DNA of 64,000 nt from Synergistaceae bacterium. GTDB lineage: Bacteria > Synergistota > Synergistia > Synergistales > Aminobacteriaceae. The position numbers and the translations under genes were made by a program. Below the pieces are notes generated by a model that saw nothing but the letters and a program-made list of their open reading frames with translations, was not told the DNA's origin and searched no databases. Position 1 is the first letter of the stretch. Each line of letters opens with the position of its first letter. Location of the stretch: the NCBI GenBank assembly GCA_017454625.1, contig JAFTCP010000116.1, positions 2,917 to 66,916 on the forward strand. The letters are read 5' to 3'. Positions 29,384-56,308 of the stretch are shown here, piece after piece.

Positions 29384-29394
29384 GGAGAAGAATT

Positions 29395-33123: not shown

Positions 33124-33146
33124 GCTCCCTTCGGGGAGCTTTTTTG
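33124..33146 (+). terminator. strong rho-independent terminator
   Basis: GCTCCC-ttcg-GGGAGC hairpin followed by a T7 run. Confidence 0.75.
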
Positions 33147-33159
33147 TTGGAGGGAGCAT

Positions 33160-33345
33160 ATGAAGACAACTATAAAAGGGCAGGATAAATCTATATTCTT
33201 TACAGAGTTGGCAAAGAATTTTGCTGAAAGCTGTAGAAAGATTACCGAATTATGGAAGGTTTATATGGCTTTCGCAGATGGGAAAATATCCCTTGACGAG
33301 TTTAGTGAACTCCGCCGCATGATTTTGGAGGAGCAATCAGGATGA
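33160..33345 (+). CDS. hypothetical protein
   Basis: 61-aa ORF behind a GGAGGGAG RBS. Its stop overlaps the following ATG (ATGA). Confidence 0.4.
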   Translation: MKTTIKGQDKSIFFTELAKNFAESCRKITELWKVYMAFADGKISLDEFSELRRMILEEQSG

Positions 33346-33395
33346 CTACGACCATTAAGGAGCAAATACAGGTTGCTGAAGCCCGCTTAACTCTT
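33342..33395 (+). pseudogene. 5' fragment of head-tail joining gene gpW (first ~18 codons), cut by the inversion breakpoint
   Basis: MTTTIKEQIQVAEARLTL is coupled to the upstream gene. Beyond 33395 the frame runs antisense to a fibre-gene fragment. The rest of gpW lies at 53350-53165 on the other strand. Confidence 0.55.
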
Positions 33396-33662
33396 ATTCT
33401 GAAAATCAAGAACTTCACGAATAGCCGTGTCCTGCTTGGCCCGCTGTTCTGTCTCAAGCTGTATCTTCTCAGCGTTGCGGTTAATCTGTTCCTGCAGGGC
33501 TGTATCTCCCGCAATTCTGGCCTGTACCTCACGCTTCAGTGCTTCTTTTCGACGTTCTAGTGCCTCATGCAAACTCAGCGCGTCTCTCAGGAATGAATCA
33601 GCCAGTGTATTAATCTCTCTTTGCAGGCTGTCATCACCAATTAATCGTCGTCCTGACTTCAT
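33387..33662 (-). pseudogene. 5' fragment (~90 codons) of the repeat-containing CotH fibre gene, separated from its body by the inversion
   Basis: MKSGRRLIGDDSLQREINTLADSF...ALERRKEALKREVQARIAGDTALQEQINRNAEKIQ carries the same repeat type as 53400-54500. It ends 2 codons past the breakpoint. Confidence 0.55.
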
Positions 33663-35724
33663 GAATACCAACAAAATACGCCTCACCTAATGTGAATGTG
33701 CCTTGAAGTTTCACTAACTTTGTGCCGGTCGGAATTCCTTCGGGGATTGTGAATTTCCCGCTGAATATTCCTGAACCGTTCGCGCTGGTCGATGAACACG
33801 CTACCTCTATTCCATCAAAGATAACTTTCACTGCCTCGTTCGGGCCGAAACCGCTCGCACTCACTTGAACTTCAATCTGCCGTATAGTCCCTTCGACTTC
33901 CTCAGTTGTAGTTGTCGAGCTGTCTAAAACTTGGCCGCTCCTTCTGGTTGAGCGTACAGTTCGCAGGATTACCGACTTCACAATATTTTCTGTCCACCTG
34001 TCGACCGATGGGGTAAGTGTAACTTCAACAGGCATGGGCTCAAAAGCCTGATAGGGATTAACCTTCATATCCCGCGTGTGTGTCGGCTGGTCAATCAAAA
34101 TTTCAACGTCATAGTCAAGCACAGTATCTTTAGCGAGAGCTAATTCCGAAATTTCCGCCGTCATTGGAAGCTGTAATGTCTGGTCGGCAATTAAAGCGGT
34201 CTGCGGTATGCCAGCGTCCCTCATGTCATCGTCGAATAATGGGTCAACGAAAACGTTATACGCGCTCGTCGGAGCATGAAGCGTCGCGTCAAACCGTAAT
34301 TCCTGCCTCGCTAAAAGCCCGTAAAGGTCGAGTATTTGACTTCTCATTTCATTTAGAACGTCAGCATGCACACACTTAATCGCTACGTTTCGGACTTCAG
34401 GCAAGCCCAGCCATGTTTGCGTTACCTGTGCAAGGCATATAGCTTCCGGCGGAGTTCCAGGCAAAACAGGGTCGTAACGATGAGAAATTCCACGAACAAT
34501 TCCGATTGAGCAATCTTTATACATTACGATAATGTCTTTTCGCGGCATCCTGTAATAGTAACTGGCTTCAATCACCGAATTTTCAAACAGACCTGATACT
34601 GTGATGCTCGTCGTGTTAAATAAATCAGGCTTAATATTCGTTCGGTAATGATAAGTCGCTGTGTATGTTGCGCCGGGCTGAGGCTCTTCACCGCTTGGAC
34701 TCCAGTCAAGATTATCGCCGTCAAGCAGAAAGTCTGTACCTTCAACGAAAATTAACGCACCCTGTTTAACTTCGACGACCTCAAAAACTGAATCATTCGG
34801 CAAGCCGTCAACACATCCTGAATAATTCCCGTGTGTCAGCGTAACTGTCCGCTCTTTCGTAACTCTAACCTGCGTTACGTTTTCTATGGGCGTGTGAGAC
34901 ACATTGAAAGACATCCTGCCCGTCCCGCCGCTGTTGAACCTGTGAACTTCCGATTGAACTTCTGCAAGGTCAAAAGCCTCATCGATTATGAGCCTCACGG
35001 AGTGCCCTATTTCAGCTTCGTAGCCGTTTATGTGCGCAAGCCCTTCTGAAATGCTGTAAGTTTGCTTGCCTGTCTCTGAGCTTTGAAGGGCCGTAACATT
35101 CAAGCCTTCAACAACATAATGACCGTTTGCGTGCCGATCGTAACGTGCTGTAGTGTTAAGATACTCAGGGTTAATTTTCTGGAGCTGAGTAACAATTTCA
35201 CCCCCGCTGATACCATAAACGGGGAAAAATGGCATATCAATATTATCTGTGCTTAATCCCCATTCCGCGACGGTGATAACTCTATATGCGCCGGGCATCA
35301 TGTATTGCGGTGTATTTCTTGCCGGTTCATTCAGGGTTTCGTCCTCATATTCTGTGAGGGCGCTGGATTTTTTCCATATGCCGACTTGAATATCTTCATC
35401 GTTGGGAATGTCTAAAACTTTTTCTGCAACTTCATACACAAGGCCGTCTATAAATATTCTTCCTGCCTCAAGGCTTGCCTTCTTCGTTCCTGTGTCAAGC
35501 GTGATAGCACAACCCTTAATTATTGTGCCGTCTGCGTATAATGAACTGCCGATAGCCTTAATTTTTTCTTCCGCTATGCTCTGAATTTCGTTGAACTCCG
35601 CTGACTGCATCGCTCTTCCTGAAAGTACAGCAACAGCGTCCCAGTTTTTAGATTTTTCATAGCGGTTGTAATACTCCGGCACTTTCAGCAAGGTTTTAAT
35701 TTCTTCACCTGTCAAATATCTCAC
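33634..35724 (-). CDS. tail fibre / baseplate-distal protein (DUF4815-like)
   Basis: 696 aa, positioned after the gpI-like gene. The N-terminus YYNRYEKSKNWDAVAVLSGRAMQSAEFNEIQSI is recalled from the DUF4815 family. Confidence 0.5.
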   Translation of the reverse strand: MRYLTGEEIKTLLKVPEYYNRYEKSKNWDAVAVLSGRAMQSAEFNEIQSIAEEKIKAIGSSLYADGTIIKGCAITLDTGTKKASLEAGRIFIDGLVYEVAEKVLDIPNDEDIQVGIWKKSSALTEYEDETLNEPARNTPQYMMPGAYRVITVAEWGLSTDNIDMPFFPVYGISGGEIVTQLQKINPEYLNTTARYDRHANGHYVVEGLNVTALQSSETGKQTYSISEGLAHINGYEAEIGHSVRLIIDEAFDLAEVQSEVHRFNSGGTGRMSFNVSHTPIENVTQVRVTKERTVTLTHGNYSGCVDGLPNDSVFEVVEVKQGALIFVEGTDFLLDGDNLDWSPSGEEPQPGATYTATYHYRTNIKPDLFNTTSITVSGLFENSVIEASYYYRMPRKDIIVMYKDCSIGIVRGISHRYDPVLPGTPPEAICLAQVTQTWLGLPEVRNVAIKCVHADVLNEMRSQILDLYGLLARQELRFDATLHAPTSAYNVFVDPLFDDDMRDAGIPQTALIADQTLQLPMTAEISELALAKDTVLDYDVEILIDQPTHTRDMKVNPYQAFEPMPVEVTLTPSVDRWTENIVKSVILRTVRSTRRSGQVLDSSTTTTEEVEGTIRQIEVQVSASGFGPNEAVKVIFDGIEVACSSTSANGSGIFSGKFTIPEGIPTGTKLVKLQGTFTLGEAYFVGIHEVRTTINW

Positions 35725-35728
35725 CTCC

Positions 35729-36217
35729 TCATAATGTCAATATTGTTCCGTAAAATCCTTTTTTCTTAGGAGTAAACATCTCCGCTGTCTCCAGATGTTC
35801 AAGCAGAATTAAACTGCCCGGATTTTGTATCTGGTCGGGCGTGAAGTAGCTTTGCGTTGATGGAAGCCCAGCCTTGATTTGTGTATCTATGAATACTCCG
35901 ACTTCTCGGATTGGTTCAGCAACTCCCTCACCGTAATTGAACATACAGCTCAAATATACGTGCCGCGTTGGGGTTTCTGAGTATGAATATTTCCTGCCGC
36001 CGGGCATATCTATATCGCCGTCATCATCTTCATTAACGAAAAATGAGCGCGTCAATTTCTTCCGGCCAATTTCCTTTACAAGTGCTGTAGCTTCGTAATC
36101 CGCCTCTTTCGGAGTTGTGTCCCAGCTGTCTTGTCCTTTACCGATTGCAAGAAACAACGGACGGGATAAAAGATATTTCGCCCAAGCTACACGCGCTAAA
36201 AATGTCAATACTGCCAT
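35729..36217 (-). CDS. phage tail-associated hypothetical protein
   Basis: 162-aa ORF tightly packed between the gpI-like and fibre genes. Confidence 0.4.
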   Translation of the reverse strand: MAVLTFLARVAWAKYLLSRPLFLAIGKGQDSWDTTPKEADYEATALVKEIGRKKLTRSFFVNEDDDGDIDMPGGRKYSYSETPTRHVYLSCMFNYGEGVAEPIREVGVFIDTQIKAGLPSTQSYFTPDQIQNPGSLILLEHLETAEMFTPKKKGFYGTILTL

Positions 36218-37429
36218 CTATACAACCTCTTGAATTTCCCATGTTCCAACTTCCCACGTTCCGGCCTGCTCTGTTGTGTTTTCCCATGTGTCGCTGCCTT
36301 CCCAAGTTTTTTGGGAACTCCAGCGCGGTATAGGCGGCTCATTTCCCCATGCTAAAGACGCTGTAAGTCCAATCTTCAAACCTGACGCGATGGGCTGCTG
36401 CTCTTTCTCCTCAGTCCATGTGTAATGTTCATCCCACGAATACATATCCCAATAAGGCCGTGCATCGTAGACAATGCCGATGAATGGAATTAAGCCGAAA
36501 ACAACGCCTGAATCTTCAAGCTCAAGCTCCGCCGGAAATGTGCTTTCAATTGTCAGACCGACGGGCCGGTAAAATCTGCGCGGGTCGTTCCATGTGAAGC
36601 CGCCCCAGTCTGAGGGAATTAGCCAAGTGTCAATGTCATCTTCAAGTTCAGCGAAAATTCCCGTCTCTGAGGCAATGCCGACTTCCTGCAACCTGTAAGG
36701 CATGCTTCCCCACGTTCCGAAATCCCAATATTGAATATCGCTAAGTGTCAAAATTCCGCGCTCGGTGAAACTGAACATTGGAGCTTCATCCTCAAACAAA
36801 GGGTTTGAAGGTGTCAGCATTCCCCAGTCATACCGCCGCCATTCGACATGTTCCCAGTTGCAAATATCCCAATAACAAATATGCTTCGTCATGTCGATTG
36901 GAATCGGCGCAACTGTCAGCTTTAATAGTTTTGAACGCGCGGGCTTCGTAAGCTCAATGATGCGGGTTAAAATTTCGTCCGTCTTAGGGCCGAGAAAATC
37001 AACGTTAATATGGTCGTCTTTGTAGTAGCCTCTGACGCTGAATGTATGCGGCTCTGTGCGTAATTCCGGCTCAAACCATTCCTTAATCGTGGGGACAAAG
37101 TTTAACTTTTCGAGTGCGCTGATTATCGCGGCTTTCGTGCCTTTCTTCCGATGCCACTTTATGGAGTCAAGAACAAGTTCACGCTTGGTTGCAAGCGGCA
37201 ATTCCGGCTCGTAAAAATCAACATGCCACTGCCATGCAAGCAGGTCAATAACATTTTCAGGAAGCTCATTAATCCGCGAAATAATAAAAGCCTCCCTGAT
37301 GTTTCGGGAGACTTCTTGCAATTGCGGGTCGGTCGCTTTGATTATTGCCTGTACGTTTTCGTCGCCTGCTATGGAACTGGGAATTATATCCTTCAAGGAG
37401 ATAACTTCCAGCTCTTTAGCCATCTTCAA
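36218..37429 (-). CDS. baseplate/tail protein, P2 gpI family with C-terminal extension
   Basis: LPENVIDLLAWQWHVDFYEP...KRELVLDSIKWHRKKGTKAAI is typical of tail_P2_I. Confidence 0.7.
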   Translation of the reverse strand: MKMAKELEVISLKDIIPSSIAGDENVQAIIKATDPQLQEVSRNIREAFIISRINELPENVIDLLAWQWHVDFYEPELPLATKRELVLDSIKWHRKKGTKAAIISALEKLNFVPTIKEWFEPELRTEPHTFSVRGYYKDDHINVDFLGPKTDEILTRIIELTKPARSKLLKLTVAPIPIDMTKHICYWDICNWEHVEWRRYDWGMLTPSNPLFEDEAPMFSFTERGILTLSDIQYWDFGTWGSMPYRLQEVGIASETGIFAELEDDIDTWLIPSDWGGFTWNDPRRFYRPVGLTIESTFPAELELEDSGVVFGLIPFIGIVYDARPYWDMYSWDEHYTWTEEKEQQPIASGLKIGLTASLAWGNEPPIPRWSSQKTWEGSDTWENTTEQAGTWEVGTWEIQEVV

Positions 37430-38555
37430 GCCCTCCGAATGTTATCGTCGTCGATGATGGAATTGCAAGCTGTGAAGCTGATAAAACCTTGAAAGCCGGT
37501 GAATTTATCTCTGTGCGTTTTGCTCCGGCGGCTATCATTCGGTGATTTAATTCGCTAGGGTTCAGGTCGCGCCCTAATTTTGAACGCTGCCATGTTACCC
37601 ACTCACGCACTGACGCTTCAATAGCCGCTTGAAGCTCCGTTGATTGTGTCGCTTTTGCACGGTCAATAAAATATTTCACGTTCAAAGCATAATTCACAAC
37701 TTCCGGCGCATGGACGCTCACGCAGTCTGTCAAGGGCCTCACGTCGTCAGCATTGCAGATTGAGAGCACCGTATCAAGCACCTCACGTGATGGCAATTCT
37801 CCGTTTCGCATGAGAGGATATATCCGCACATAACCCGCTTGTATATCGGGCGGCCCAACCACAGCCACATCAATAATATCCTGATGAGCACTCCTCGCAT
37901 AAAACTCATAAGCCCCGCGAGGCCCGGCAACTGAAAAACTTTCAGGCGCAATCTGTATTCGTTCTCTAAAATTTTCATCGTTCTCATCATCACTGCCTCC
38001 GTAAGTCTCTGTTGTGTTTATTACGGACATCTCAAACGGGAAAGGGTCAACAAGTTTCTTCAATTGGCCGATAACAAAACCATTGCCCTGACTTCCTGCC
38101 GTTGTGCATTCCGCTGTTATTAATGCTTCGGTGTCGCCCGCTGAAATTTCCCCCGCTTCAATTGTCGCAAAAATTATGTCTCCTCCGCCCGCTGATACGC
38201 GCGTGCCCGCAGGAATTGTTACAACTGACGCTTGAGCTTCGGAGAGAGCGAATTTCAGTATCGTCATTGCCTTTGACGCTTCAAGCCTCGTAACTTCGAG
38301 CAATGCCCCCAAGTGGTCGAGATAATCACCTTCAGCATAGGCCAATAAATTCTGTTTTGCCGCGTAATCGATGAGGCTTCGTTGATGAATGATGATAAGA
38401 ATAAAAGTGTTGAGCAATAATCTTATCGGGTCGCCTTTAGCAAGTGTGCGTTCTGAGAGCTGTTCATAAAGGGTGATAATTTCGCTCTCGATTTCTTCAG
38501 CGGACTTCTCAGCAAAAATTATGTCAGCAAGTCCGGGAAATAAATCACTCTTCAT
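37416..38555 (-). CDS. baseplate protein J
   Basis: gpJ-like pattern and position. The ATG at 38555 overlaps the gp25-like stop. Confidence 0.8.
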   Translation of the reverse strand: MKSDLFPGLADIIFAEKSAEEIESEIITLYEQLSERTLAKGDPIRLLLNTFILIIIHQRSLIDYAAKQNLLAYAEGDYLDHLGALLEVTRLEASKAMTILKFALSEAQASVVTIPAGTRVSAGGGDIIFATIEAGEISAGDTEALITAECTTAGSQGNGFVIGQLKKLVDPFPFEMSVINTTETYGGSDDENDENFRERIQIAPESFSVAGPRGAYEFYARSAHQDIIDVAVVGPPDIQAGYVRIYPLMRNGELPSREVLDTVLSICNADDVRPLTDCVSVHAPEVVNYALNVKYFIDRAKATQSTELQAAIEASVREWVTWQRSKLGRDLNPSELNHRMIAAGAKRTEINSPAFKVLSASQLAIPSSTTITFGGLEDG

Positions 38556-38865
38556 TAATCTCAATCCTCACTCTCGCGGTTAATTTTCCGTCAACATCGC
38601 CGTCAAAACTTATCTTCTTAACTCGACATCGCGGCTCATATTTCCTGATGGCCTGTGTAAGTTCAGCCTGTAATGTCGCAATCGCTTTCGGAGTCGGACG
38701 GTCAAGCATCACGGCTTCAACTCCGAAAAGTCTGTCCAAAGGCACGCTGTATTTCGTCGTTGTGCAAATCGTCCTGACATTCTGCGCAACCTCCTCAATC
38801 AAGTTCTCAGGCGCAAAATTTATCTCCTGTTGTGAGGCTAATACTTCAATTTCCATTGGCCTCAA
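38545..38865 (-). CDS. baseplate wedge protein (GPW/gp25 family)
   Basis: 106 aa with YSVPLDRLFGVE...QAELTQAIRKYEPR, typical of gp25-like proteins. Confidence 0.75.
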   Translation of the reverse strand: MRPMEIEVLASQQEINFAPENLIEEVAQNVRTICTTTKYSVPLDRLFGVEAVMLDRPTPKAIATLQAELTQAIRKYEPRCRVKKISFDGDVDGKLTARVRIEINEE

Positions 38866-39256
38866 CCTCGATATATTCTTTCAGCTTTAACGAAACTTCG
38901 ACAGCTATTGAAGTCCCGCGATTATCAATAATTTCATAGTTTTCATCTAATCCCTCTAACACCCACAGCCCATCACCCTGCGGCTCACCGTCGAGGATAA
39001 AGGGCACGGCCTGATGTTTGTTCAGAATGTCATGTAACGAGTTCAGCTCCTCTTTTGGGTTTATTCCAAGCCCAGCGTCTAATCTTATGCTGAGGCTCAT
39101 TGATGCCGGTGCAAGCCCTGTGAACTCTAAAAGGCTTTTGCGCCCGTGAATTGAATGCTCTGAATATTTCGCGCTTCTTTGTATCTGCAAGTCCCGAAAA
39201 GTTCTCACCTTATCCGATGAGACTTCAAAGACTACTTCGCCGAGTGAACCTATCAT
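38846..39256 (-). CDS. phage tail protein (P2 GpU-like fold family)
   Basis: 136 aa with GEVVFEVSSDKVRTFRDLQIQRSAKYSEH...LEFTG...PFILDG. Confidence 0.45.
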   Translation of the reverse strand: MIGSLGEVVFEVSSDKVRTFRDLQIQRSAKYSEHSIHGRKSLLEFTGLAPASMSLSIRLDAGLGINPKEELNSLHDILNKHQAVPFILDGEPQGDGLWVLEGLDENYEIIDNRGTSIAVEVSLKLKEYIEVEANGN

Positions 39257-39262
39257 GAAGTA

Positions 39263-39565
39263 TTAATCCCCCGCAAAAACATTTTCACTCCCAGTTGCAA
39301 CGCTTGAGCCACAAGAAACAGGATCGCCGATACGTCCGAGCTGTCTATTATTCACATATACTGAGCCGCTTCCTGATGAAAGAACTCCGCCGTGTGAACC
39401 ATGCGGGACTTCTGGATGTGTGCAGGTATGAACTGCCCAGCCGTCGCCTAATCTGTGAACGGGTAAGCCGTTACAAAACACGTTAGGGCTTCCTTCTATG
39501 CTTTCACGAGGAGGGAAGCATTCATGACCTGTGCATATATCGCCTTGTCTGGTTACTGCTGGCAT
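39263..39565 (-). CDS. PAAR-domain spike tip protein
   Basis: PAAR-like repeats (GDICTGHE, HRLGDGW, RIGDPVSCGS). Confidence 0.75.
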   Translation of the reverse strand: MPAVTRQGDICTGHECFPPRESIEGSPNVFCNGLPVHRLGDGWAVHTCTHPEVPHGSHGGVLSSGSGSVYVNNRQLGRIGDPVSCGSSVATGSENVFAGD

Positions 39566-39732
39566 TTCTCCCATTCCTCTCTTATGCGTTCTGCTCTTTG
39601 TTCGTGCCATTGCTTTAACAAAAATTCAATACAGGCTTGATTACGCTTCACCTGAAAATAAACTTGTGCAAGTATCGAAAGCGTTATCAAAGAGAAACAT
39701 ACTGTGAATACTGCTAATCCTGTTATCTGCAT
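39553..39732 (-). CDS. small single-TM protein
   Basis: ~59-aa ORF between the gpV and PAAR genes with a hydrophobic N-terminus (ITGLAVFTVCFSLITLSILAQVYF). Confidence 0.3.
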   Translation of the reverse strand: MQITGLAVFTVCFSLITLSILAQVYFQVKRNQACIEFLLKQWHEQRAERIREEWEKCQQ

Positions 39733-39743
39733 AAAAATCTCTC

Positions 39744-40196
39744 CTAATTCCAATCTATTCGCTTTGCTGTCAGTTTAATATTATCGTCAGCAAAGATATT
39801 TATGTGGCCTTTAGCGTGTATCTCAATATCTCCGACGCTTTCAATTTTCAATAAGTGATTTTCTCGGTCATAGAGAATTTCTGTGCCGTCATCAAACGTA
39901 ACTTTGCGCGTGTCCTTATCTCCTAAAGGCGGCTTGTTTTTATCGTCGTAAATTGAGCAAAGCACAACACCACTTTCAAGTCCGTTGCCCATCATGTTGC
40001 AATAAACATGCTCGCCAATATCAAGATGAACTTCGTCCTTGTTTTTCTGGGAATTTGGGACAGCAACAGGAAGCCACGCTGAAACTAAATCGCCTTTATC
40101 GGGAAATTTTATACGTGCCATATGCCTCACTGGGTCATAGTCCGAAACATAACCAAACCGTCCGTGCGCTCCTGCTTCTTCATCGTTATTTGTCAT
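39744..40196 (-). CDS. baseplate assembly protein V / central spike
   Basis: gpV-like OB-fold N-terminus (GYVSDYDPVRHMARIKFPDKGDLVSAWLPV) and a beta-helix tail. Confidence 0.7.
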   Translation of the reverse strand: MTNNDEEAGAHGRFGYVSDYDPVRHMARIKFPDKGDLVSAWLPVAVPNSQKNKDEVHLDIGEHVYCNMMGNGLESGVVLCSIYDDKNKPPLGDKDTRKVTFDDGTEILYDRENHLLKIESVGDIEIHAKGHINIFADDNIKLTAKRIDWN

Positions 40197-41328
40197 TGGG
40201 AATTAATACCTGCCTTTCTCCGAAATATACGTTACTCACTGTGTCCGTAGTAGTGATGCGTCTGTTGTGTTTCTTAGCCTTTGATTTCTTTTTCTTGCGA
40301 GATTTCTTCTTAGCTTCTTTTCCCATGCTCAAATCAAGTTTCGTAGTGTATGAGCCGCTGATGCTGTGCGTCGCCTTCTCAATCACATATTCACCGTCGA
40401 ACGCGCCAAATCCAGAGATTTTTACGTTACTGCCTCCGACAAATCGCAGGTCTCCCATTAAAGTAATATTGCCCGTGATTTCGCGTTTATTGGCCTTGCG
40501 TAATTTCTCCTTCGCAATTTTCTTAGCGTCCGCAATTGTGTCGGCTTTCTGGTTAATCTCAAGCGTCCGGCCTGTGCCCTCTGCGTCGTCGTTCTCTTCG
40601 ACATCGAAAGTTTCATCCTTAACGGGATCGTGATACTGCAACTTCGCGGCTTTATAAGTTCCGGCGGCCTTACTTGAAAAACTCCAGCTGATTAACTTTT
40701 TATCGCCGAATGAAAACTCACCAACCGGCGAATGCTGCTCGTATTCCTCTTCGCCGTAACAAACAAGCTGTGTATCCGTAACTTTTACAGCAATTCCGTA
40801 ATCGCGTGCAAGCCCTGAAAAAAATTCCAAGTCCGATGTTTCGACCTGATCGCGCCGCTCAAAAAATGGGTCATCTTTGCAATCCCAAAACAATGAAAGC
40901 CCGTTTTTTCCTGCAACGTCTCCGGCAATCGTGGAGAGCTTCACATTTTCCCATGCCTTTGTGTGTTTTTCCTGACGCATGGGCTTTGATACGAGCGTAG
41001 AAATTGCTTTTATCGTTACCTGATTGGGCGGGCCTGAACAATCTATTTGGTCAACCTCAAACGTTCCGCACGGTAAAGATTGAGTTCTGTTGACAGCCTC
41101 CCAGTCATGAACGACTATGCTTACCTTGATTTTGTCGCCCTTCGTCGGAAACCAGTCATTAACCCAGAGCCTTTCGCGGTCTTCAAGGCTGAATGAAATA
41201 TCATCGGCCTTATCTTTTGCGTTATCCGTGTATGTGAAGCTCAGCAAATACGGGGCTATATCCCTTGAGATGTTCACGCCTTCGTAATAGATTACGACTT
41301 CAGCCCATCTTGCCTGGTGTGCGTCCAT
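40186..41328 (-). CDS. late control protein D (gpD) family tail protein
   Basis: 380 aa, positioned between gpX and gpV, with a gpD-like sequence pattern. Confidence 0.7.
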   Translation of the reverse strand: MDAHQARWAEVVIYYEGVNISRDIAPYLLSFTYTDNAKDKADDISFSLEDRERLWVNDWFPTKGDKIKVSIVVHDWEAVNRTQSLPCGTFEVDQIDCSGPPNQVTIKAISTLVSKPMRQEKHTKAWENVKLSTIAGDVAGKNGLSLFWDCKDDPFFERRDQVETSDLEFFSGLARDYGIAVKVTDTQLVCYGEEEYEQHSPVGEFSFGDKKLISWSFSSKAAGTYKAAKLQYHDPVKDETFDVEENDDAEGTGRTLEINQKADTIADAKKIAKEKLRKANKREITGNITLMGDLRFVGGSNVKISGFGAFDGEYVIEKATHSISGSYTTKLDLSMGKEAKKKSRKKKKSKAKKHNRRITTTDTVSNVYFGERQVLIPNDK

Positions 41329-41335
41329 GTGTCAA

Positions 41336-41545
41336 TTACCTCTTCCATGCTGGCAGGCTGGAAATCACCGGCACTGAAACTTCGGGAATGTTCAAGATTA
41401 CATTAGCTGGAAAAATCACCGTGTGTATGTGTTCAGGATTATATTCAAGGAGAAAATCCATGAGCTGCTCGGCTCCGATTTTTGGGTACATTCTCAGCGC
41501 AATTAAATCCCACGTGTCGCCCTGTTCTGTCCTGTAAGTTCTCAC
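41336..41545 (-). CDS. tail protein X (LysM-like)
   Basis: YRTEQGDTWDLIALRMY...ANVILNIPE is typical of P2 gpX. Confidence 0.75.
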   Translation of the reverse strand: MRTYRTEQGDTWDLIALRMYPKIGAEQLMDFLLEYNPEHIHTVIFPANVILNIPEVSVPVISSLPAWKR

Positions 41546-45348: not shown

Positions 45349-45354
45349 CTGCCT

Positions 45355-45839: not shown

Positions 45840-45853
45840 TGTTAAGCCTCCTG

Positions 45854-47883: not shown

Positions 47884-48455
47884 GGTAACGCCTCTAATAA
47901 GCGCATTACTTCATGGTCTAAACGTTTCGCAAAACGCTCTTCCGCTCCACGTTCCATGACGTTAACAGTCTCCTCATTCTTGATAATCTGAGGCATTGAC
48001 GGCGAAATTAACGAATGCATGTCATATTTTCCCTTGCCTGTTCGGAAAAACGGGAAATATCTTCCGCCTGCACGCTTAACCAAGAATGCCGGGCCTAAAG
48101 ACTTTAAGCCCCCTTCACGTTTCACAGCTCCTTTAAGCGGAGTTCTCCGGCCAATTTTAGGAGTTGACGGCGTAAGTTGATAATCAGCGAGCGAATGACG
48201 TTTACCCTTTGAAACCATCGCGCCCATCAAGTTACCGGCTGAAGCCTTACGAAAACTTATGCTGGCTCGGACATCTTTAGCACTCACAAAATATTTCTTG
48301 TGTGTCTCGCTAACTGCGTCAGTCCTCATGCCGTCCATCGTTCGATTTACAGCTCTGGCAACTGCACGGGGAGTTTCAGCAAGAATTGACATCAAAGCTG
48401 AGTTTGCACGCGCAAGCCCCTCATTAGAAATTTGCAAATTTATCATGCCGTTCAT
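47880..48455 (-). CDS. minor tail/neck protein (lambda gpZ-like)
   Basis: 191 aa; called from position and overall pattern. Confidence 0.4.
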   Translation of the reverse strand: MNGMINLQISNEGLARANSALMSILAETPRAVARAVNRTMDGMRTDAVSETHKKYFVSAKDVRASISFRKASAGNLMGAMVSKGKRHSLADYQLTPSTPKIGRRTPLKGAVKREGGLKSLGPAFLVKRAGGRYFPFFRTGKGKYDMHSLISPSMPQIIKNEETVNVMERGAEERFAKRLDHEVMRLLEALP

Positions 48456-48823
48456 TAATTATTCGCCTCCAGTACAATACGCCACACCTGATCCTGAATT
48501 AATCTCGCCTCAGAAACTGTGTATAGCTTACTGTTCAGCTTCAATGACTGCCCCGCCGCAAAATTCTTCATGTCCTGCGCTCGGCAAAATAAAATCCCCC
48601 GACTTCGTGAAATTCCTTCGAGGGTTTTTCCGTTGAAATTCAGGTTGAGCGTCTGAGTTTTTATGTCTGACGTGAAGATTGAGAGAATTTTTTTGCCGTT
48701 AATGTCGTGAAATCTCGCAAACTCCGAGTTATTGAACCAGACGGCGGCATCATCAAGGTCATGTGCTAAAAAATCAAGAAACGTCTCATCTCGCGAGTAA
48801 ATATCATGAATTGCCTTCAACAT
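48455..48823 (-). CDS. head-tail connector protein (lambda FII-like)
   Basis: C-terminal pattern GQSLKLNSKLYTVSEARLIQDQVWRIVLE. I chose the start at ATG 48823. Confidence 0.4.
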   Translation of the reverse strand: MLKAIHDIYSRDETFLDFLAHDLDDAAVWFNNSEFARFHDINGKKILSIFTSDIKTQTLNLNFNGKTLEGISRSRGILFCRAQDMKNFAAGQSLKLNSKLYTVSEARLIQDQVWRIVLEANN

Positions 48824-49001
48824 TTTCCTGTGCTGTTTCGGCTTCTCGTTTCTTCGCGGCTTTCGTCGCCTTGACATCCGCAATAACCTCAGCCATTCCC
48901 CGCGCCACAAGCTCCCGTACTCTGGGAGTATCCGGCAATATTTCTCCCGCCTTAAATATTCTCGAACCGGAAATAAAGCGTCCATGTCTCAAAATAATCA
49001 T
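48804..49001 (-). CDS. hypothetical head-module protein
   Basis: 65-aa ORF coupled to the major capsid gene stop. Confidence 0.35.
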   Translation of the reverse strand: MIILRHGRFISGSRIFKAGEILPDTPRVRELVARGMAEVIADVKATKAAKKREAETAQENVEGNS

Positions 49002-50062
49002 GCTGCACCTGTGATTACGCCCTTCAATACGTACCAGCTCTTAAGGTCATGAGGCATCGGCAAGGGACGCGATGAAATTGATATGAACTTCTGCGGCGGG
49101 TCTTCCGTAAACCATTTATGCGGGACATATGGGCGCATATAAGTTACATGATTGCCGGTTTTGTCGATCGTCGTGATAGCTCCATAAAGCATTGAATTTT
49201 TCTCGCTTGAGTTCTGAATTATCACGGTTTCAGGGTCAATAATGGGCTTTAATTTAGGCTCGCCGTTCTCGTCAAGGTCGCTTGTGTCTGGTATCCATTC
49301 TTCGTAAGTGTATAAATCGAACATCGCACCTGGCACAATCATTCGGCCTAAATAACCTATTCCATGTTCAAGTTCTCCTGGCTTAATCTCCCCGATTTCA
49401 ACGCGCCGATTGTCTAATAACTTCAAATATCGTTCATTCTTCAAGAGCATTGAGGCCGCTTCAGAGCCAAGAATTAACATGTCGGGATTAATTCCGTCCT
49501 TGCGCATTTCTCGTGCTATAGCTTGAAGCTGACCCATAATGTCAAATGTCGGTGTCCAACGGTCAGAGGCATCAAGCACAGCGATATTTTCAAAGCCGTA
49601 ATCTACTATTTCACTGACACCCTTCCCCTTTATTATGAGTTTGCCGTCCTGCTTCACGCGCGAACACATGTATTCTTCACGCCTCCAGATAGTATCTTGA
49701 AGGTCAAGAATATCCTGCGCGGCAATTCTCGCGGCTCTGTCCTCCGGCGTAAGTCCTGAATTATAGGTAGGTTCACTGAGTAATTTTTGCATTAACGTGT
49801 CATTCGTTATCGTTCGTTTCGGGGAAATAAACGGCGTTCCGTAAGTCCTCACTGTGTATTCATCACGGCCAATATCTTCTGAGCCAACACGAGGATTTAC
49901 AAAAGGTGCTAATCTGCGCCGCTTCTCCTGAAATTCAAAGCTGACTTTTTCCGTCGGAAATACTACAGGATTATTGAAATATCTCGTCTTAAAGAATGTC
50001 CGAAGGGGTAAAGTCTTCTCAATAACCCCCATAACCATTTTAGGCTCGTAATAATCTTTCAT
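48998..50062 (-). CDS. major capsid protein, lambda gpE family
   Basis: 354 aa. The N-terminus YEPKMVMGVIEKTLPLRTFFKTRYFN...FEFQEKRRRLAPFV is typical of Phage_cap_E. Confidence 0.85.
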   Translation of the reverse strand: MKDYYEPKMVMGVIEKTLPLRTFFKTRYFNNPVVFPTEKVSFEFQEKRRRLAPFVNPRVGSEDIGRDEYTVRTYGTPFISPKRTITNDTLMQKLLSEPTYNSGLTPEDRAARIAAQDILDLQDTIWRREEYMCSRVKQDGKLIIKGKGVSEIVDYGFENIAVLDASDRWTPTFDIMGQLQAIAREMRKDGINPDMLILGSEAASMLLKNERYLKLLDNRRVEIGEIKPGELEHGIGYLGRMIVPGAMFDLYTYEEWIPDTSDLDENGEPKLKPIIDPETVIIQNSSEKNSMLYGAITTIDKTGNHVTYMRPYVPHKWFTEDPPQKFISISSRPLPMPHDLKSWYVLKGVITGAA

Positions 50063-50499
50063 CTCGCAGCTCCTTTATCGTGAATGTGTCTCAAGAATAT
50101 TTTTGCTTTTCGCAACGGCTCACGAACCGTCTCAACAATTGCATCATGATCGTCGTCTTCGCCCTCAAACGGGAAAATCACGCGCTCATCGTTAAATTCT
50201 CCCTCAAAATAGGCCGCCGTCTCCGCGTATTCATTCTCGCCGATTTCAACATCATCACAAAGAATGCAAATCCCGCTTGCCGTCGCTAATCCTGCCTGAG
50301 TTGAAGCAACGTAGCCGTCAGCTCCAGCCATTAAGAGAGTGCCGCGCTTAAATTCCCCTGCAACGGAGATTTTCACAATGTCGCGGTAAACTGCTCCTCT
50401 GTTGCCGGAAATTAAATCGTCGGGCGGCGGGACTGTCCCCTCTGTTTTGATTAATTGCATTGATACCTGTGTTTTTTCAACTGGTGTAGGGTCTGGCAT
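50059..50499 (-). CDS. head decoration protein (lambda gpD-like)
   Basis: 146 aa between the protease and capsid genes, with GTLLMAG...GICILCDDV...AAYFEGEFN. Confidence 0.7.
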   Translation of the reverse strand: MPDPTPVEKTQVSMQLIKTEGTVPPPDDLISGNRGAVYRDIVKISVAGEFKRGTLLMAGADGYVASTQAGLATASGICILCDDVEIGENEYAETAAYFEGEFNDERVIFPFEGEDDDHDAIVETVREPLRKAKIFLRHIHDKGAAR

Positions 50500-51593
50500 T
50501 ACTTATAACCTCTCATTCTGTTTAACTCGTTCACGACAGCATTAATCGCGGCTTCCTCTTCAGCTTGGGATTTGGGCGTGTCTTTTCTCGGCGGTAATGC
50601 TTCGTCAATAACTCCCGCGTCTTGGTGCAGTGCGTTCAATTTTGCCTGTGCCGAATCAGCTTGCAAAAGTTCAATCGCAATATCACGCGCATCTTTCGGG
50701 TCTTCGTACTTAGCCTTTGCAATAATTTCTTCACGGCCCGGAGCATTCAGGCTGTCGAGAGCTTTTAACCGCTCACGTTCGGCCATAATTCCGCGCTGAT
50801 ACCCTGCTTCATCAGCTGTGTTTTTGATTGTTCCGACAAAATCAGGGTATGCATTCTCAAGTTCTGCTGTATTCTTTATATCCATTTCGGTTTTATTCTC
50901 CTTCGTCTCATGTTTTATGACCGCTAAAGGTGAGATTTTGACGGTGTTTTTCGGCAGTTTCGCGCTCAGAAATTCATCAACGCGAGAGAAACCGAAACCA
51001 TTCCTAAAAATTGTTCCGCCTTGAACTGCCATCGCAGTAACTTCAACGGCTTCTGCAACTTCATCGCAGAATTTCAGGTCGTGCGCTTCGGTTGCTGTCA
51101 TCCATGTTTCAGCGTCCATCATCGAGATAACTTTTTCACGGTCAAGCCCTGTCTTAGCAATATAAACATTCGCGATTGTGTCTCGAATTTTGTCGAGGAT
51201 TTCCGCTGTGTCTCTCATGTCCTCAGCTTCTCCCCAAACTCCTCCGGCAGGATTGTGTATCATCATGAGTGCGTTTGACGGCATGATTATCTTATTCCCT
51301 ACCATAGCTATCAAACTCGCCGCACTTGCTGCAAGCCCGTCAATCCTGACCGTGATATTCGCAGGGTGAGACTTCAAATAGCTGTACATTGCCTGTGCCT
51401 CAAAAACATCACCGCCGACGCTGTTAATCCTGAGCGTTATATTCTGTATATTTCCGAGTGCCTTGATTTTATTGATGAGACTTTTAGCGTTTACAAGCCC
51501 CCAGTTTTCATCATTGAACGCTGAGATTTCATCATAAAGCAAAATCTCGGCTTCACTTTCACTCTTAGCTGTTACCTTCCACACTCGCATCAT
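50499..51593 (-). CDS. ClpP/S49-type head maturation protease with C-terminal scaffold region (lambda gpC/Nu3-like)
   Basis: INSVGGDVFEAQAMYSYL, GLAASAASLIAM and MIHNP motifs, plus an acidic helical tail. Confidence 0.85.
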   Translation of the reverse strand: MMRVWKVTAKSESEAEILLYDEISAFNDENWGLVNAKSLINKIKALGNIQNITLRINSVGGDVFEAQAMYSYLKSHPANITVRIDGLAASAASLIAMVGNKIIMPSNALMMIHNPAGGVWGEAEDMRDTAEILDKIRDTIANVYIAKTGLDREKVISMMDAETWMTATEAHDLKFCDEVAEAVEVTAMAVQGGTIFRNGFGFSRVDEFLSAKLPKNTVKISPLAVIKHETKENKTEMDIKNTAELENAYPDFVGTIKNTADEAGYQRGIMAERERLKALDSLNAPGREEIIAKAKYEDPKDARDIAIELLQADSAQAKLNALHQDAGVIDEALPPRKDTPKSQAEEEAAINAVVNELNRMRGYK

Positions 51594-53160
51594 CCCTCTC
51601 GTTTATTTGGTCGCCTGGCGTGCTGGTAAATCCTGCTTCTCTGCGCAGATTTTCTTCTTTCACTCGCTGACGATGATTAAGCTCCCAATCTCCGCCGGTG
51701 AGTTCTGCCGTCTCCTTCTGGCGTGTACTGAAGCCGTTTTCAACTCTGAGAATTGCCGCTTTGACTTCTTTCACTGGGTCAAGCTGTCCCTGCGACGGCC
51801 CTGTCCAATCCGCCCATGAATAGGCGTAACGTATCATCGGATCGTCAAAAAAGCCCGGAGCTTGCACACGTCCACGCAAAACAGCCTCGTACAGCCATTC
51901 TTCATAGACGGGCTGACAGAAATTTATTACCCACCAATTGCGCCAATAATTAAACAGCTTCCATGCTTCGAGTAATGCTCCGCGTGATGCCGAATATGAA
52001 CTCGTGAAATTCAGGAATAAGACTTCAGCAGGTATGCTTAAAGAACTGCCGATTTGACGGACTAATGACATCACGAACGCGTCAAAGGCTGAATTTGGCC
52101 GTGATGGTGAAACGGATTTTGCGCGGGTTCGTTCAGGTAAGTCCGCAATCATTCCGTACATATCGCCAACTCTAACTTCTTCTAATTTATCACGCCACTT
52201 TTTAAGTTCCTTTTCTTTGTCTTCTCTAAGCCCCAAATCACTGGCCATTGACTCCTCGCCCACAAAATCAGAGCTGTCATCGTCATCAACTCCGTGTTCA
52301 AAGAAAATCGCGAATATTCCGCCGATGACTGCCGCCATTAACTCAGCATAGCTGTATCTTCCTAACTGTTTTAACGTCTCAATCACAGGTGCGAGGAATG
52401 GAACGCCTCTGTGCTGGCCAATTCGTTCAAGCGGTAAGAGGTGCAAAACATTTCTGCGGCCTGTTTTTGCTCCGAATGCTGGCACTCTCACGTATTCAAG
52501 TCGCGGCAACCCTGATAACTCACTCAAAGGATGATGATTAGCTATGTGATAGGCTACAGGTCTCCCGTCATTGTGCCTTCGGCGTGCTCTGCAACCGAAC
52601 TCAACTCCGCCGTCGATTAGCGCGTTGTATGTTCTAAGCGGCGGGTCTTGCAGTCTGTCGCCCTCAATCAATGCAATTCGCAGGTCATAAGGAAAATCCT
52701 TTGTGTGTCTCATTGGGAGCATTACGAGAGCGTCGCCGTTCAATAACACGGACTTGAAACAGAGATTTTGAAGCTCGTAAAAATTCATACCTCGTGCAAT
52801 GTCGCATTCCTTACTCTCAGCCCAAAAACAAAATTCGCGCTCCGTGTTTTCTTCCCATTCGGCGGCTTCTTCCTCTGAAAGTCCGAGTGTTTCCGCGCTA
52901 ATCCTGCAATTCAGGGTTAAACCTGCGCCGACAGAGTTAAGAACAATTCTGTCAATTGCTCCACGTCCGAGCGGGCCGCCTCCTGCGTATAAATCTCTTG
53001 AACGTTCACGCAAAAGTTCAAGATTATCTGTGATGTCCTCGCTGGGAGATTTCGAGAGTGTATACCAAGCTGAAACGCTCGGTTTCGTTCGGCTTGCTCC
53101 GTAGTGAGAATAGCCGGAATTCTTGATGCTGATTTGTTGTTTACGATTTCGTCGGCTCAT
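51565..53160 (-). CDS. portal protein, lambda gpB family
   Basis: 531 aa with a lambda-family portal pattern, positioned between gpW and the protease. Confidence 0.9.
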   Translation of the reverse strand: MSRRNRKQQISIKNSGYSHYGASRTKPSVSAWYTLSKSPSEDITDNLELLRERSRDLYAGGGPLGRGAIDRIVLNSVGAGLTLNCRISAETLGLSEEEAAEWEENTEREFCFWAESKECDIARGMNFYELQNLCFKSVLLNGDALVMLPMRHTKDFPYDLRIALIEGDRLQDPPLRTYNALIDGGVEFGCRARRRHNDGRPVAYHIANHHPLSELSGLPRLEYVRVPAFGAKTGRRNVLHLLPLERIGQHRGVPFLAPVIETLKQLGRYSYAELMAAVIGGIFAIFFEHGVDDDDSSDFVGEESMASDLGLREDKEKELKKWRDKLEEVRVGDMYGMIADLPERTRAKSVSPSRPNSAFDAFVMSLVRQIGSSLSIPAEVLFLNFTSSYSASRGALLEAWKLFNYWRNWWVINFCQPVYEEWLYEAVLRGRVQAPGFFDDPMIRYAYSWADWTGPSQGQLDPVKEVKAAILRVENGFSTRQKETAELTGGDWELNHRQRVKEENLRREAGFTSTPGDQINERDDASVEGNS

Positions 53161-53164
53161 GTAA

Positions 53165-53350
53165 TCACCATCCCGGCCGTACTACTCTGAATTTCGCGCG
53201 GCCTCTCTGTTTCGCTTTCAAGGCTGAGATTTTATTTTCAAGTGTAGCAATCATATTCTGAACGTCTTTCAAGTTTGCGCGGGTTAATTTCAAGCCCTCA
53301 GCCTCGTAGGATTGACCGGACAATATTGCTTTCTCAGCCTTGTAATAAAG
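53165..53350 (-). pseudogene. 3' part (~61 codons) of head-tail joining gene gpW, cut by the inversion breakpoint
   Basis: ...YYKAEKAILSGQSYEAEGLKLTRANLKDVQNMIATLENKISALKAKQRGRAKFRVVRPGW is gpW-like. There is no plausible start codon or RBS. Upstream in frame is the antisense of the fibre repeats. Confidence 0.6.
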
Positions 53351-56308
53351 ACTATTAATCTCCGTAAAGACGAAATCAACACGGAGACAAAAGCCCGCAC
53401 AGAAGATGACGCAGGACTTGCACGTCAGGCAAACGAAAACGCAGAAGCGAACATGCGGACAGCCTTCAATCTGCAAGAGATTAACAACCGGCGTAAAACT
53501 GACTTACACCGCGAAGAGCAAGAGCGAATTGTAAATGACATAGACCAGCAAGGGCAAATCAACAGGGCCGCAACAGCCGACATCGAAAACGCCTTAAATC
53601 TGCATGAAATCAACGCGAGGCGTAAATCAGACCTGACGCTTGAAAAGCAGGAACGCATAACTCATGATGACAACCTGCAAAGACAGATAAATGAAGCCGT
53701 AAATGCCAGTCTAGAAAACGCACTAGGCATTCATCAAGAAGCCGAACAACGGCGAAAATCTGACGAGCGAATAAAAATCATAAGCGACGAGACGGCTCGG
53801 CGAATTGATATTGACGAGTATCACCAATTACAGATTGACAAGGCGATATACGCAATACTGCAAAATTCCCTTGCGCTGAGTGAAGCCTTAGAACGAAGAA
53901 GGGCGGCCTTAATTCTTGAAGAGCAATCCCGAACCGAAGAGGACGCAGGATTGCAGGGACAAAGCGACACAAACGCGGCGGCAATAATGCAAAACGCCCT
54001 GAACATTCAACAAGAGGCTGAAAATCGCAGAAAACTCTTAGACGAAATTGCGGCGGAAGCTCAGGAGCGAGAGCGTCAAATTCAGAATGTGCGCTCGGAG
54101 ATAAGCGAACTCTACGAAATTCCTCTGCCCGGCCTTCGTGAGGAACTTGCAAAACTTCAAGAGCAAACCGACACGAACGCTGAGGCTAATATCTGGACAG
54201 CTTTGAATATTCACTCTGCATTGGCCCGGCACACAGACACATTAATTCAAGAGACACAAAGCCGAGTTTCGGAGTATGTCGTGACGCAGAGACAGATTAA
54301 CGCAAACGCAGACGGAATTTTGCAGAACGCTCTGAACCTTAGCGATGCTTTCGACAGGTACAGGAATGCATTAACTCAGGAAGCCCGCGCCCGTGTGGAA
54401 GAAGACGCAAATCTTCAAACACAACAGGGCGTAAATGCTGCGGCTATTTTGGAGCTTTCAGCTAATCTTTCAAGTGAAGCCGAAAAACGCCGTGAGCTTT
54501 CAAAAGCTATATCGGGTATTAAATCGCCGGTTGATTGGAGCAAATCCTCAAGCCTTGCGATACCAGAGCCGCGCTGTGCAGTTGTGAACTTCACGGGGCT
54601 AAAGTCCATGCCTACGAGCAAGACCGCCGAAATTCCCGCAGTAATGGAATTTTGGGACATGCAGGGTAATTTTTTCAGGAAAAATATTACGTGTTCAGCG
54701 CAGGGCAGTTCATCATTGGGCTACGTAAAAAAGAACGTGAAATTTGACCTGCTCAATGAAGACGGCTCAGAATTTGACCTGAAAATTGGAAACTGGGTAG
54801 TTCAGGACGGTTTTCACCTGAAAGCTTATTACACGGACTTTTTCAGGGGAGTTGCAGTAACAAGCTATAAATTCTGGGATGAAGTCATGAGGTATAACGG
54901 CCTTGACAAAGACAGGCCATACAAGCGGGCAATGATTAACGCATCAGAGATACAGCCGAGCGGTACGAGCCTAAACAATCCCGATGATATGACCCTGCAA
55001 CTAGACACTGGAGCATTGTGTCATCCTGACGGCTTCCCTTGCATTGTTTATTTGAACGGCCAATTTTACGGGATATTCTCATGGCAGATTAAGAAACAGC
55101 GCAAGAATTACCATATGGATAAAAGCACTGTTGAGCATATTCACCTTGACGGCTCGCTTTACACACAGTATTTCTGGAACGGCGTAATCAACTGGACGAC
55201 GTTTGAAATTCGCAACCCGAACAAGCTCTACACGATGGACGGGAAGAAATATGACGGCGACGCTCCCAAAGAATTAATTGATGAGACTTCGGAGAAGTAC
55301 AACCCAGACGATAAAAATCACGTCCGAAGCGCGACGGTCAAGAAATATATTCAAGACTTTGTGCAGAATTTCGGCGTGTTGAAAACTCTCTACTCGGTTT
55401 ATCGTTCATCACCGAGTGAAGAAACTTTTGCGGCTGTAAAAGCAAAATATGAAGAGCTCTTCGACTGGGAAAATCAGCGCGACTATCTAATTTTCTCGGA
55501 CGTTGTGAAGAACTCAGACGGTTTCGGCAAAAATTGGCAGTGGACGACTTATGACGGCGTGAAATGGTTTGTGAATGCGTATGACCTCGATATGTCTTAC
55601 GGCGGCCACTGGCAGGGGATACAGATAACCGCCCCTTTGACAGGCCATATCACAGCAAGCACTGCCATTCCTACAGGATACGTTGCGTTGCTGTATAAAT
55701 CAGAGCTGGAGGCCAGATACAGGGAGTTACGGGACGCGGGAATAATCAGCGTCAACAATATTCTCTCAAAATTGGCCGATTGGACAGCAAGGATCGGAGT
55801 TGGCAATTATGAACTTGAATATGAACGCTGGCCGAACAGTCCGTGTATTCTTAACTACACAGACAGCATATACCGCGTCAAGAGGTGGCTTGAAGTCGAA
55901 ATTGCGAACATGGACAAAATTTATGGCTACAAGCCCGACGAAGAGCCTGCGGCTGTTGAAGTCTTCGATGATTTTGAGGCTCAAATCCGAGCTGCGGAAG
56001 ATGCGGGTATTTTGAGGCAAGTAAACGCTTTAGCTGTTTCCGACATCGAAAGCGAATTGAACCGAGCAGAGGCCAATTCTGAACGCAGACGCGAAGAAAC
56101 ACAGGAGCGTTATATCCGAGACGACCAAGACTCCGGCTTACAAACACAGATAAACAAGCTGGCGGAGGCGAACATGCTGGCGTTGCTTAAAGAACACGAG
56201 ACGCATAAAAAGTTAAGCGAAATAACGCAGTCGCTGGAAGAAATTCCCCGACACTCTGCCACAGACGAAGAAGTCGACGAAATGCTCGACGAAATTTATA
56301 ACTCATGA
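53312..56308 (+). CDS. CotH-domain tail fibre protein with N-terminal ~43-aa coiled-coil repeats; 5' end displaced by the inversion
   Basis: The first 12 codons are antisense of gpW. Repeats follow. The CotH-like core includes CIVYLNGQFYGIFSWQIKKQRKNY and NWQWTTYDGVKWFVNAYDLDMSYGGHW. Repeats recur at the C-terminus. Confidence 0.6.
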   Translation: MTGQYCFLSLVIKTINLRKDEINTETKARTEDDAGLARQANENAEANMRTAFNLQEINNRRKTDLHREEQERIVNDIDQQGQINRAATADIENALNLHEINARRKSDLTLEKQERITHDDNLQRQINEAVNASLENALGIHQEAEQRRKSDERIKIISDETARRIDIDEYHQLQIDKAIYAILQNSLALSEALERRRAALILEEQSRTEEDAGLQGQSDTNAAAIMQNALNIQQEAENRRKLLDEIAAEAQERERQIQNVRSEISELYEIPLPGLREELAKLQEQTDTNAEANIWTALNIHSALARHTDTLIQETQSRVSEYVVTQRQINANADGILQNALNLSDAFDRYRNALTQEARARVEEDANLQTQQGVNAAAILELSANLSSEAEKRRELSKAISGIKSPVDWSKSSSLAIPEPRCAVVNFTGLKSMPTSKTAEIPAVMEFWDMQGNFFRKNITCSAQGSSSLGYVKKNVKFDLLNEDGSEFDLKIGNWVVQDGFHLKAYYTDFFRGVAVTSYKFWDEVMRYNGLDKDRPYKRAMINASEIQPSGTSLNNPDDMTLQLDTGALCHPDGFPCIVYLNGQFYGIFSWQIKKQRKNYHMDKSTVEHIHLDGSLYTQYFWNGVINWTTFEIRNPNKLYTMDGKKYDGDAPKELIDETSEKYNPDDKNHVRSATVKKYIQDFVQNFGVLKTLYSVYRSSPSEETFAAVKAKYEELFDWENQRDYLIFSDVVKNSDGFGKNWQWTTYDGVKWFVNAYDLDMSYGGHWQGIQITAPLTGHITASTAIPTGYVALLYKSELEARYRELRDAGIISVNNILSKLADWTARIGVGNYELEYERWPNSPCILNYTDSIYRVKRWLEVEIANMDKIYGYKPDEEPAAVEVFDDFEAQIRAAEDAGILRQVNALAVSDIESELNRAEANSERRREETQERYIRDDQDSGLQTQINKLAEANMLALLKEHETHKKLSEITQSLEEIPRHSATDEEVDEMLDEIYNS
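53400..54500 (+). repeat. ~8 degenerate tandem coding repeats (~129 bp / ~43 aa)
   Basis: Repeat unit: E(D/E)D.GLQ.Q.N.NA.A.L.NALN(L/I).(E).(A/N).RR...L..E.Q.R. Confidence 0.7.

Follow-up and report, generated by a model that had tools for sequence, protein, structure and literature searches.

Results

The head-to-fibre module of a Synergistaceae prophage is inverted

The window analyzed here is a stretch of 64,000 nucleotides (nt) from contig JAFTCP010000116.1 of a short-read Synergistaceae metagenome-assembled genome (MAG; proteins MBQ7594144, MBQ7594145 and MBQ7594170; contigs of 107.9 kb, from which the window is taken, and 69.1 kb), and it carries a prophage in which the terminase genes lie on the + strand and the head, tail and baseplate genes on the - strand. 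The - strand block lies in a precise inversion of 19,952 bp that splits two genes, one for a gpW-like head-tail adaptor and one for a CotH fibre protein. The first ~20.3 kb of the window are ordinary chromosomal DNA that encodes carbamoyl-phosphate synthase, oxidoreductases and a pterin-binding enzyme, showing that the element is integrated. The features that define the locus are given below in window coordinates (aa, amino acids; E, expectation value).

28760..29383 (+): YR207, a 207-aa tyrosine recombinase with the catalytic domain only (Pfam Phage_integrase, E 3e-18; PHROG 216 integrase)
29930-30439 (+): TerS, outside the inversion
30390-32312 (+): TerL (GpA_ATPase and GpA_nuclease, E ~1e-81), outside the inversion
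33160..33345 (+): orf61, whose stop overlaps the gpW start via ATGA
33342..33395 (+): 5' fragment of the gpW-like adaptor gene, codons 1-18, read from the translation
33392..33395 (+): left crossover core TCTT, the sole sequence common to both junctions
33396..53347 (-): inverted segment, 19,952 bp; flipping exactly this interval restores collinearity with relatives
33396..33638 (-): piece from within the CotH fibre gene, matching ~residues 195-279 of the full-length homologues (tblastn of P0140-P0142 and DNA alignment to the related locus L052)
33634..35724 (-): truncated DUF4815 protein, 696 aa, with the scar of a ~1.6-kb deletion at ~33638
45854..46958 (-): truncated tail sheath (46134-46958, 274 aa) and tail tube remnant (homology from ~46147 downwards), from profile matches
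51565..53160 (-): portal, lambda family (Phage_portal_2, E 3e-80)
53165..53347 (-): 3' fragment of the gpW-like adaptor gene, codons 19-78 and stop, without a start of its own
53348..53351 (+): right crossover core AAGA, the reverse complement of TCTT
53348..56308 (+): body of the CotH fibre gene, outside the inversion (CotH domain, E 1e-9; 70-72% identical to P0140-P0142)

The - strand gene series spans 53.16 kb down to 33.63 kb according to the open reading frame (ORF) map, Pfam matches and gene tables, and it is in lambda order. The head part comprises the gpW 3' part, portal, a ClpP-like protease, decoration protein, major capsid protein and head-tail genes, and the tail part comprises the truncated sheath, the tube remnant, a chaperone, the tape measure, the baseplate genes, the truncated DUF4815 gene and the internal fibre fragment. 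At the left junction, the 18-codon gpW start (33342-33395, +) runs on into antisense DNA after 33395, and the remaining 61 codons are found at 53347-53165 (-). The fibre fragment ends in DFQNKS and a stop codon at 33387 (-), two codons past the junction, and the CotH body resumes at 53348 (+). The ATGA overlap between orf61 and gpW is also present in a relative, L047. Thus, the ORF map and direct reading of both junctions agree with an earlier sequence-only reading of this window, in which the head-to-fibre genes were described as antisense to the + strand terminase and the gpW and fibre genes as split at the breakpoints.

Flipping the segment rejoins gpW and the fibre gene without a scar

The collinear form was rebuilt by joining window positions 1..33395 to the reverse complement of 33396-53347 and then to the window from 53348 onwards, which gives the uninverted junction sequences ...GCCCGCTTAACTCTTTATTACAAGGCTGAG... 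and ...TTTTCAGAATAAGACTATTAATCTCC.... The rebuilt gpW is 78 aa long and matches phrog_118, 'head-tail adaptor', over positions 5-71 of 76 (E 1e-18). It also matches Pfam DUF6148 over positions 9-70 of 74, a match that lies at the gathering threshold (27.6 bits vs 27). A total of 267 homologues were found; the 120 listed are 77-129 aa long, mostly 78 aa, with 78-96% identity at 95-100% coverage. In relatives, the homologous gene is downstream of TerL and directly upstream of portal, with one short ORF between TerL and gpW in those examined. From its profile match and its position between TerL and portal, the rebuilt protein is predicted to be a gpW-like head-tail adaptor (PHROG 118 / DUF6148).

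Both rebuilt joints are continuous in related phages. A 504-nt contig, L047, aligns without gaps across the gpW junction at 88% nt identity, and L052 aligns without gaps across the fibre junction at 92% nt identity. Additionally, the full-length fibre homologues P0140-P0142 (1220-1336 aa, 70-72% identity) are continuous across the fibre junction. Because relatives align gaplessly across both joints, the exchange was reciprocal, with zero bases lost or gained at either end.

The proposal that a flip restores an in-frame 78-aa gpW is fully borne out by the profiles and the 267 homologues, and in the proposed alignment of the rebuilt proteins to homologues gpW matches along its length and the fibre homologues run on over the joint. 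For the fibre gene, the same proposal stands in part: continuity at the breakpoint is regained, but ~190 N-terminal residues are still gone after flipping because of the independent ~1.6-kb deletion described below. The stretch at 33662-33387 (-), previously taken to be the fibre 5' fragment, proved to be an internal piece, since homologues extend ~150-195 residues further N-terminally.

Related phages are collinear

To place the inversion among relatives, we compared gene order across related loci. In ~30 IMG/VR relatives, TerS, TerL and portal are all on one strand, and in the closest of these, L001, portal is directly preceded by a full gpW. L045 and L046 are collinear, as are L057-L059, in which the recombinase is at least 90% identical to YR207. 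In L048-L052, the baseplate, DUF4815, CotH fibre, diversity-generating retroelement (DGR) and lysis genes occupy one strand. Once un-inverted, the window is collinear with L045, L048, L052, L057 and L058 at 66-93% nt identity, and neither breakpoint is present in any of ~45 related loci. This synteny comparison, suggested as a check in the sequence-only reading, found no relative with the split arrangement. Since all relatives examined are collinear, the inversion is derived and confined to this lineage.

The closest collinear relative is L052 (ERZ28655396 scaffold_876; 5108-12220 and 15189-16085), at 91-93% nt identity. Its own genes are split, with DUF4815 in pieces of 496 + 541 aa and the fibre in pieces of 587 + 739 aa, and its reverse transcriptase (RT) is 298 aa; L052 may be decaying as well, or these may be scaffold errors. 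There were no close matches to the window in the phage collection, and an exact search with the junction flanks gave no match in GTDB genomes or IMG/VR. A single JGI metagenome match to a junction flank was unrelated and arose by chance.

The junctions recur in other assemblies of the strain

As the window comes from a short-read MAG, the inversion could in principle be an assembly or scaffolding artefact, with a true genome that is collinear. Against this, the junctions are reproduced in at least two further assemblies made by other pipelines. Both junctions are present in MEGAHIT (k141) contigs of assembly ERZ27256806, which pass through them uninterrupted; contig L044 covers 20390-37947 at 99.99% identity and contig L043 covers 63151-41565 at 99.82%. 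The left junction is 100% identical in the Logan assembly of run SRR12529381. Across three assemblies of the strain, only the inverted form is found in the assembly-level data, and the exact rebuilt collinear gpW is absent from ~15 billion catalogued proteins. Additionally, a de Bruijn graph can yield a false inversion only where there is an inverted repeat of ~k length; the two sites share only 4 bp, so that a mis-join is not credible. We reject artefactual junctions on the strength of their occurrence in public contigs of other assemblies of the same strain, and we consider a collinear true genome extremely improbable.

Both ERZ27256806 contigs end at ~37869-37947, with a ~79-nt overlap, within the baseplate genes and far from the junctions. 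These contig ends may reflect a strain variant or a drop in coverage.

The breakpoints share 4 bp and flanks at chance level

The only sequence that the two sites share is TCTT (33392-33395) / AAGA (53348-53351). In an ungapped comparison of the flanks (+/-25 nt), 17 of 54 positions match, vs 16.8 +/- 3.1 in a null of random site pairs sharing a 4-mer. The gapped inverted-repeat score, 6.0, is below the null mean (6.8 +/- 1.6) and is attained by 72% of random pairs. Thus, the short imperfect inverted repeat that had been described at the junctions does not rise above chance beyond the 4-bp core. We calculate the chance of at least 4 bp being shared at random joints as ~1.5%. The core itself is not maintained in relatives: the gpW site reads TCTC in L047 and the fibre site reads GAGG in L052 and L048.

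Judged by these comparisons, paired inverted-repeat recombination sites are lacking at the two boundaries, and recombination sites and a linked recombinase are not conserved together in relatives. What the junctions offer is a crossover with identity over a few bp and no longer stretch of homology, at breakpoints that are non-recurrent and unique to this lineage, a pattern that suggests microhomology.

Two further routes were considered and rejected. Homologous recombination between inverted repeats does not fit, as the longest pair near the junctions (33609-33648 / 53653-53692, 80%) lies off the breakpoints; this pair is an internal coiled-coil repeat of the fibre gene. A serine invertase of the Hin/Gin type does not fit either, as the nearby recombinase is of the tyrosine type only and there are no hix/gix-like repeats.

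A third route has the same outcome, a fixed and inactivating rearrangement, by a different enzyme: a single irreversible inversion by a site-specific recombinase acting at fortuitous pseudo-sites. The candidate enzymes would be YR207, a host Xer-type enzyme or the prophage integrase, which lies past the right edge of the window. No base was gained or lost at either junction, and this perfect conservativeness fits a recombinase better, which is why we retain this possibility; the recombinase at 28760-29383 also appears catalytically plausible from its translation. However, the sites share 4 bp only and their flanks are at chance level, and tyrosine recombinases normally require identical 6-8-bp overlap regions between inverted binding arms. 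Neither breakpoint is an att site, and the two deletions found elsewhere in this prophage have comparable 2-4-bp junctions that follow no recombinase logic. A precedent for this route is given by lambda integrase (Int)-promoted inversions between att and secondary sites, which 'ground' prophages according to the account of Dorgai et al. 1993 in PMC6379469. On balance, we regard recombination at pseudo-sites as unlikely.

YR207 is conserved in collinear phages

The gene at 28760..29383 had been singled out as a recombinase that might drive the inversion. The first half of this assignment stands, in that YR207 is a tyrosine recombinase with the catalytic domain only, but a role in driving the inversion is improbable, given its orthologues in collinear relatives. 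Against Xer and FimB/E-type models, YR207 gives sub-threshold matches only, and matches to 'tyrosine-type DNA invertase' models are likewise weak and sub-threshold. Orthologues of YR207 with at least 90% identity occupy the same position in the collinear L045, L057, L058 and L059, and across this phage family they sit between a ParB-N6/N4 methylase gene and TerS. Its 90% cluster has 82 members. A search for an inverton next to YR207 found no convincing inverted repeats within 27.8-30.6 kb. YR207 is probably unrelated to the inversion.

These observations bear on a programmed, reversible inversion by YR207, in which packaging would be uncoupled from the virion genes and the prophage would toggle between a competent and an incompetent state. 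Such an on/off switch, raised as one option in the sequence-only reading, would account for a precise in-frame exchange whose flip would restore gpW, and for the presence, just ahead of the late operon, of a small tyrosine recombinase of FimB/E size. It is contradicted by the failure to find paired inverted-repeat sites, by a core that is not conserved in relatives and by YR207 orthologues of at least 90% identity in strictly collinear phages. The inverted form is also the only orientation found for the strain; the uninverted form was not seen, and contigs run through both junctions. Furthermore, the flipped-back phage would still be without its sheath and tube, the fibre N-terminus and the replication genes, so that a flip would have nothing functional to turn on, and neither orientation is predicted to give a functional output. 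We find such a switch scarcely believable. A variant in which YR207 recognizes degenerate TCTT-core sites and reversibly flips the morphogenesis module, so that most cells would carry a locked-off element to which later decay added the remaining lesions, is equally improbable. The earlier reading was right to set aside an ordinary tail-fibre host-range invertible segment.

The prophage carries further lesions

The sheath ORF (46134-46958) covers only positions 21-259 of 496 of phrog_23, and the tube only positions 75-165 of 165 of PF04985; in L045, a 487-aa sheath and a 174-aa tube cover both profiles fully. The difference is a ~0.9-kb deletion with a scar at ~46142, which took away the C-terminal half of the sheath along with ~74 profile positions at the start of the tube. 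A second deletion of ~1.6 kb, with a scar at ~33638, removed ~340 C-terminal residues of DUF4815 (696 aa vs 1038 aa in relatives) and ~190 N-terminal residues of the fibre. The DUF4815 protein ends in TTINW and a stop codon just beyond this scar, and the apparent fibre start, an ATG at 33662, is fortuitous, being DUF4815 coding sequence in another frame just upstream of the scar. Both scars have 2-4 bp of shared sequence, a style of joint like that of the inversion.

Relatives L045 and L057-L059 carry replication genes encoding helix-turn-helix (HTH) proteins of the HTH_36 type, an IstB-like loader, DnaB and DnaG. By comparison, these HTH_36 proteins, the IstB-like loader, DnaB and DnaG are absent from the window, and the adjacent HTH gene (26011-26494) is N-terminally truncated and split between frames. 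The early region (20400-26500) also contains cI/cro-like HTH genes at 23372-23806 (-) and 23952-24392 (+), an Abi_alpha abortive-infection gene at 24610-25320 (-) and a Nal1_C peptidase-like gene at 21441-22592 (-).

A DGR lies downstream of the fibre gene (57555-60186), with an intact RT of 412 aa at 58948-60186. In L048, the variable region (VR; 16050-16147) and the template repeat (TR; 16850-16947) are 87% identical, with the differences mostly at TR adenines, and a 175-aa ORF lies between them. In the window, one VR/TR hybrid (58713-58810) is present and the intervening 800 nt are missing, and L055 and L052 likewise have a single hybrid copy with the 800 nt missing, as if VR and TR had recombined into one copy.

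Over 9 kb, the window and the ERZ27256806 contig differ at 43 positions, 42 of which fall in a ~90-nt patch (58567-58655) within the DGR target gene, just upstream of VR. The patch includes a 9-nt indel, is not adenine-specific and is present in L052 in the version found in the window. It may stem from gene conversion by a co-resident relative or from a strain mixture. An active DGR was rejected as the source of the differences between assemblies, as the variable patch lies outside VR and the window has no separate TR.

By its chromosomal integration, and by essential genes that are disrupted or missing relative to intact relatives, the element appears to be a cryptic, defective prophage.

Discussion

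A probably fixed inversion in a decaying prophage

The evidence above argues strongly for a fixed, recent, illegitimate inversion of 19,952 bp, mediated by microhomology, in an integrated and decaying Synergistaceae prophage, and we hold this to be very probably the correct reading. A fixed rearrangement that inactivates the prophage was the other option raised in the sequence-only reading, and it is supported by an inversion that is derived and precise, that splits two genes and that is accompanied by at least four other inactivating lesions. The inversion is recent: none of the gene fragments has yet lost its open frame, and their identity to intact homologues reaches 96%. Altogether, there are at least five lesions: the inversion, the loss of the replication module, the sheath/tube deletion, the DUF4815/fibre deletion and the VR/TR collapse.

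The simplest course of events would begin with a one-time illegitimate recombination at a 4-bp microhomology between unrelated sites in the gpW-like and CotH fibre genes, which share TCTT in inverted orientation by chance. The exchange was reciprocal and split both genes with no bases lost. We infer from the joints that its route was either template switching or break-and-join at the microhomology, and the order of events is likewise a matter of reconstruction: the inversion may have become fixed in a prophage that was already disabled by deletions, or that was disabled by them soon afterwards. Transcription of the late operon from the terminase side would read the morphogenesis genes antisense. 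With the head-tail-baseplate module antisense to the terminase and late operon, this orientation should be unable to produce virions.

Several points weigh against this reading. A reciprocal exchange with zero loss at both ends is a hallmark of conservative site-specific recombination, and microhomology inversions obtained experimentally in E. coli often have small indels at their ends (PMC3161906). An apparently intact YR207, in which the residues R..K..HxxR..H..Y can be read from the translation, lies 4 kb upstream. The confirming assemblies possibly come from the same or related samples, so that their independence is unproven, and evidence at the assembly level leaves room for the opposite orientation at low frequency.

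Prophage decay, or 'grounding', is a well-known process (PMC6379469), and the finding is an ordinary one that brings no conceptual change. It shows an early stage of prophage decay at base resolution, in a gut lineage that is uncultured and with five lesions among reading frames that are still undegraded. Its value is mostly as a caution: judged by gene content, the region resembles an entire lambda-like/P2-like prophage and would pass as intact in many prophage finders, yet the arrangement of its genes predicts that no particles could be formed.

Comparison with known systems

The invertible segments of Mu (G/Gin), P1 (C/Cin) and e14 (P/Pin) are 2-4 kb long, are bounded by conserved inverted repeats of 26-34 bp and adjoin a serine invertase, and both of their orientations encode functional fibres. 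The inversion described here resembles them in having one breakpoint within a tail-fibre gene, and their other features are not found. Switches of the FimB/FimE type and gut invertons flip promoters on segments of a few hundred bp, with perfect inverted repeats adjacent to the recombinase. The likeness in this case is a catalytic-domain-only recombinase of ~200 aa nearby; unlike those switches, neither the junctions nor the surroundings of YR207 have such repeats.

The Int-promoted inversion between att and a secondary att site is similar in being intra-prophage and conservative and in leading to irreversible lysogeny, as far as the summary of Dorgai et al. 1993 in PMC6379469 describes it. In contrast to the events summarized there, no breakpoint lies at att in our case and only 4 bp are shared.

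A closer match is seen with the microhomology or template-switch inversions of Lin et al. 2011 (PMC3161906), which also have non-recurrent breakpoints, joints of a few bp, almost reciprocal positions and accompanying deletions whose junctions look alike. Here, both joints are exact, whereas small indels occur there, and the mechanism proposed for the present inversion is drawn from sequence.

Lastly, cryptic or 'grounded' prophages such as DLP12, Rac, Qin and e14 of E. coli K-12 decay by deletions, inversions and insertions (PMC6379469). Unlike those prophages, the element described here resides in an uncultured Synergistaceae host, its decay is recent, and its inversion covers the whole morphogenesis block and not a small region. 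It shares with them its integration beside chromosomal genes, independent lesions in replication, tail, fibre and head-tail joining functions, and an internal inversion that would make induction unproductive.

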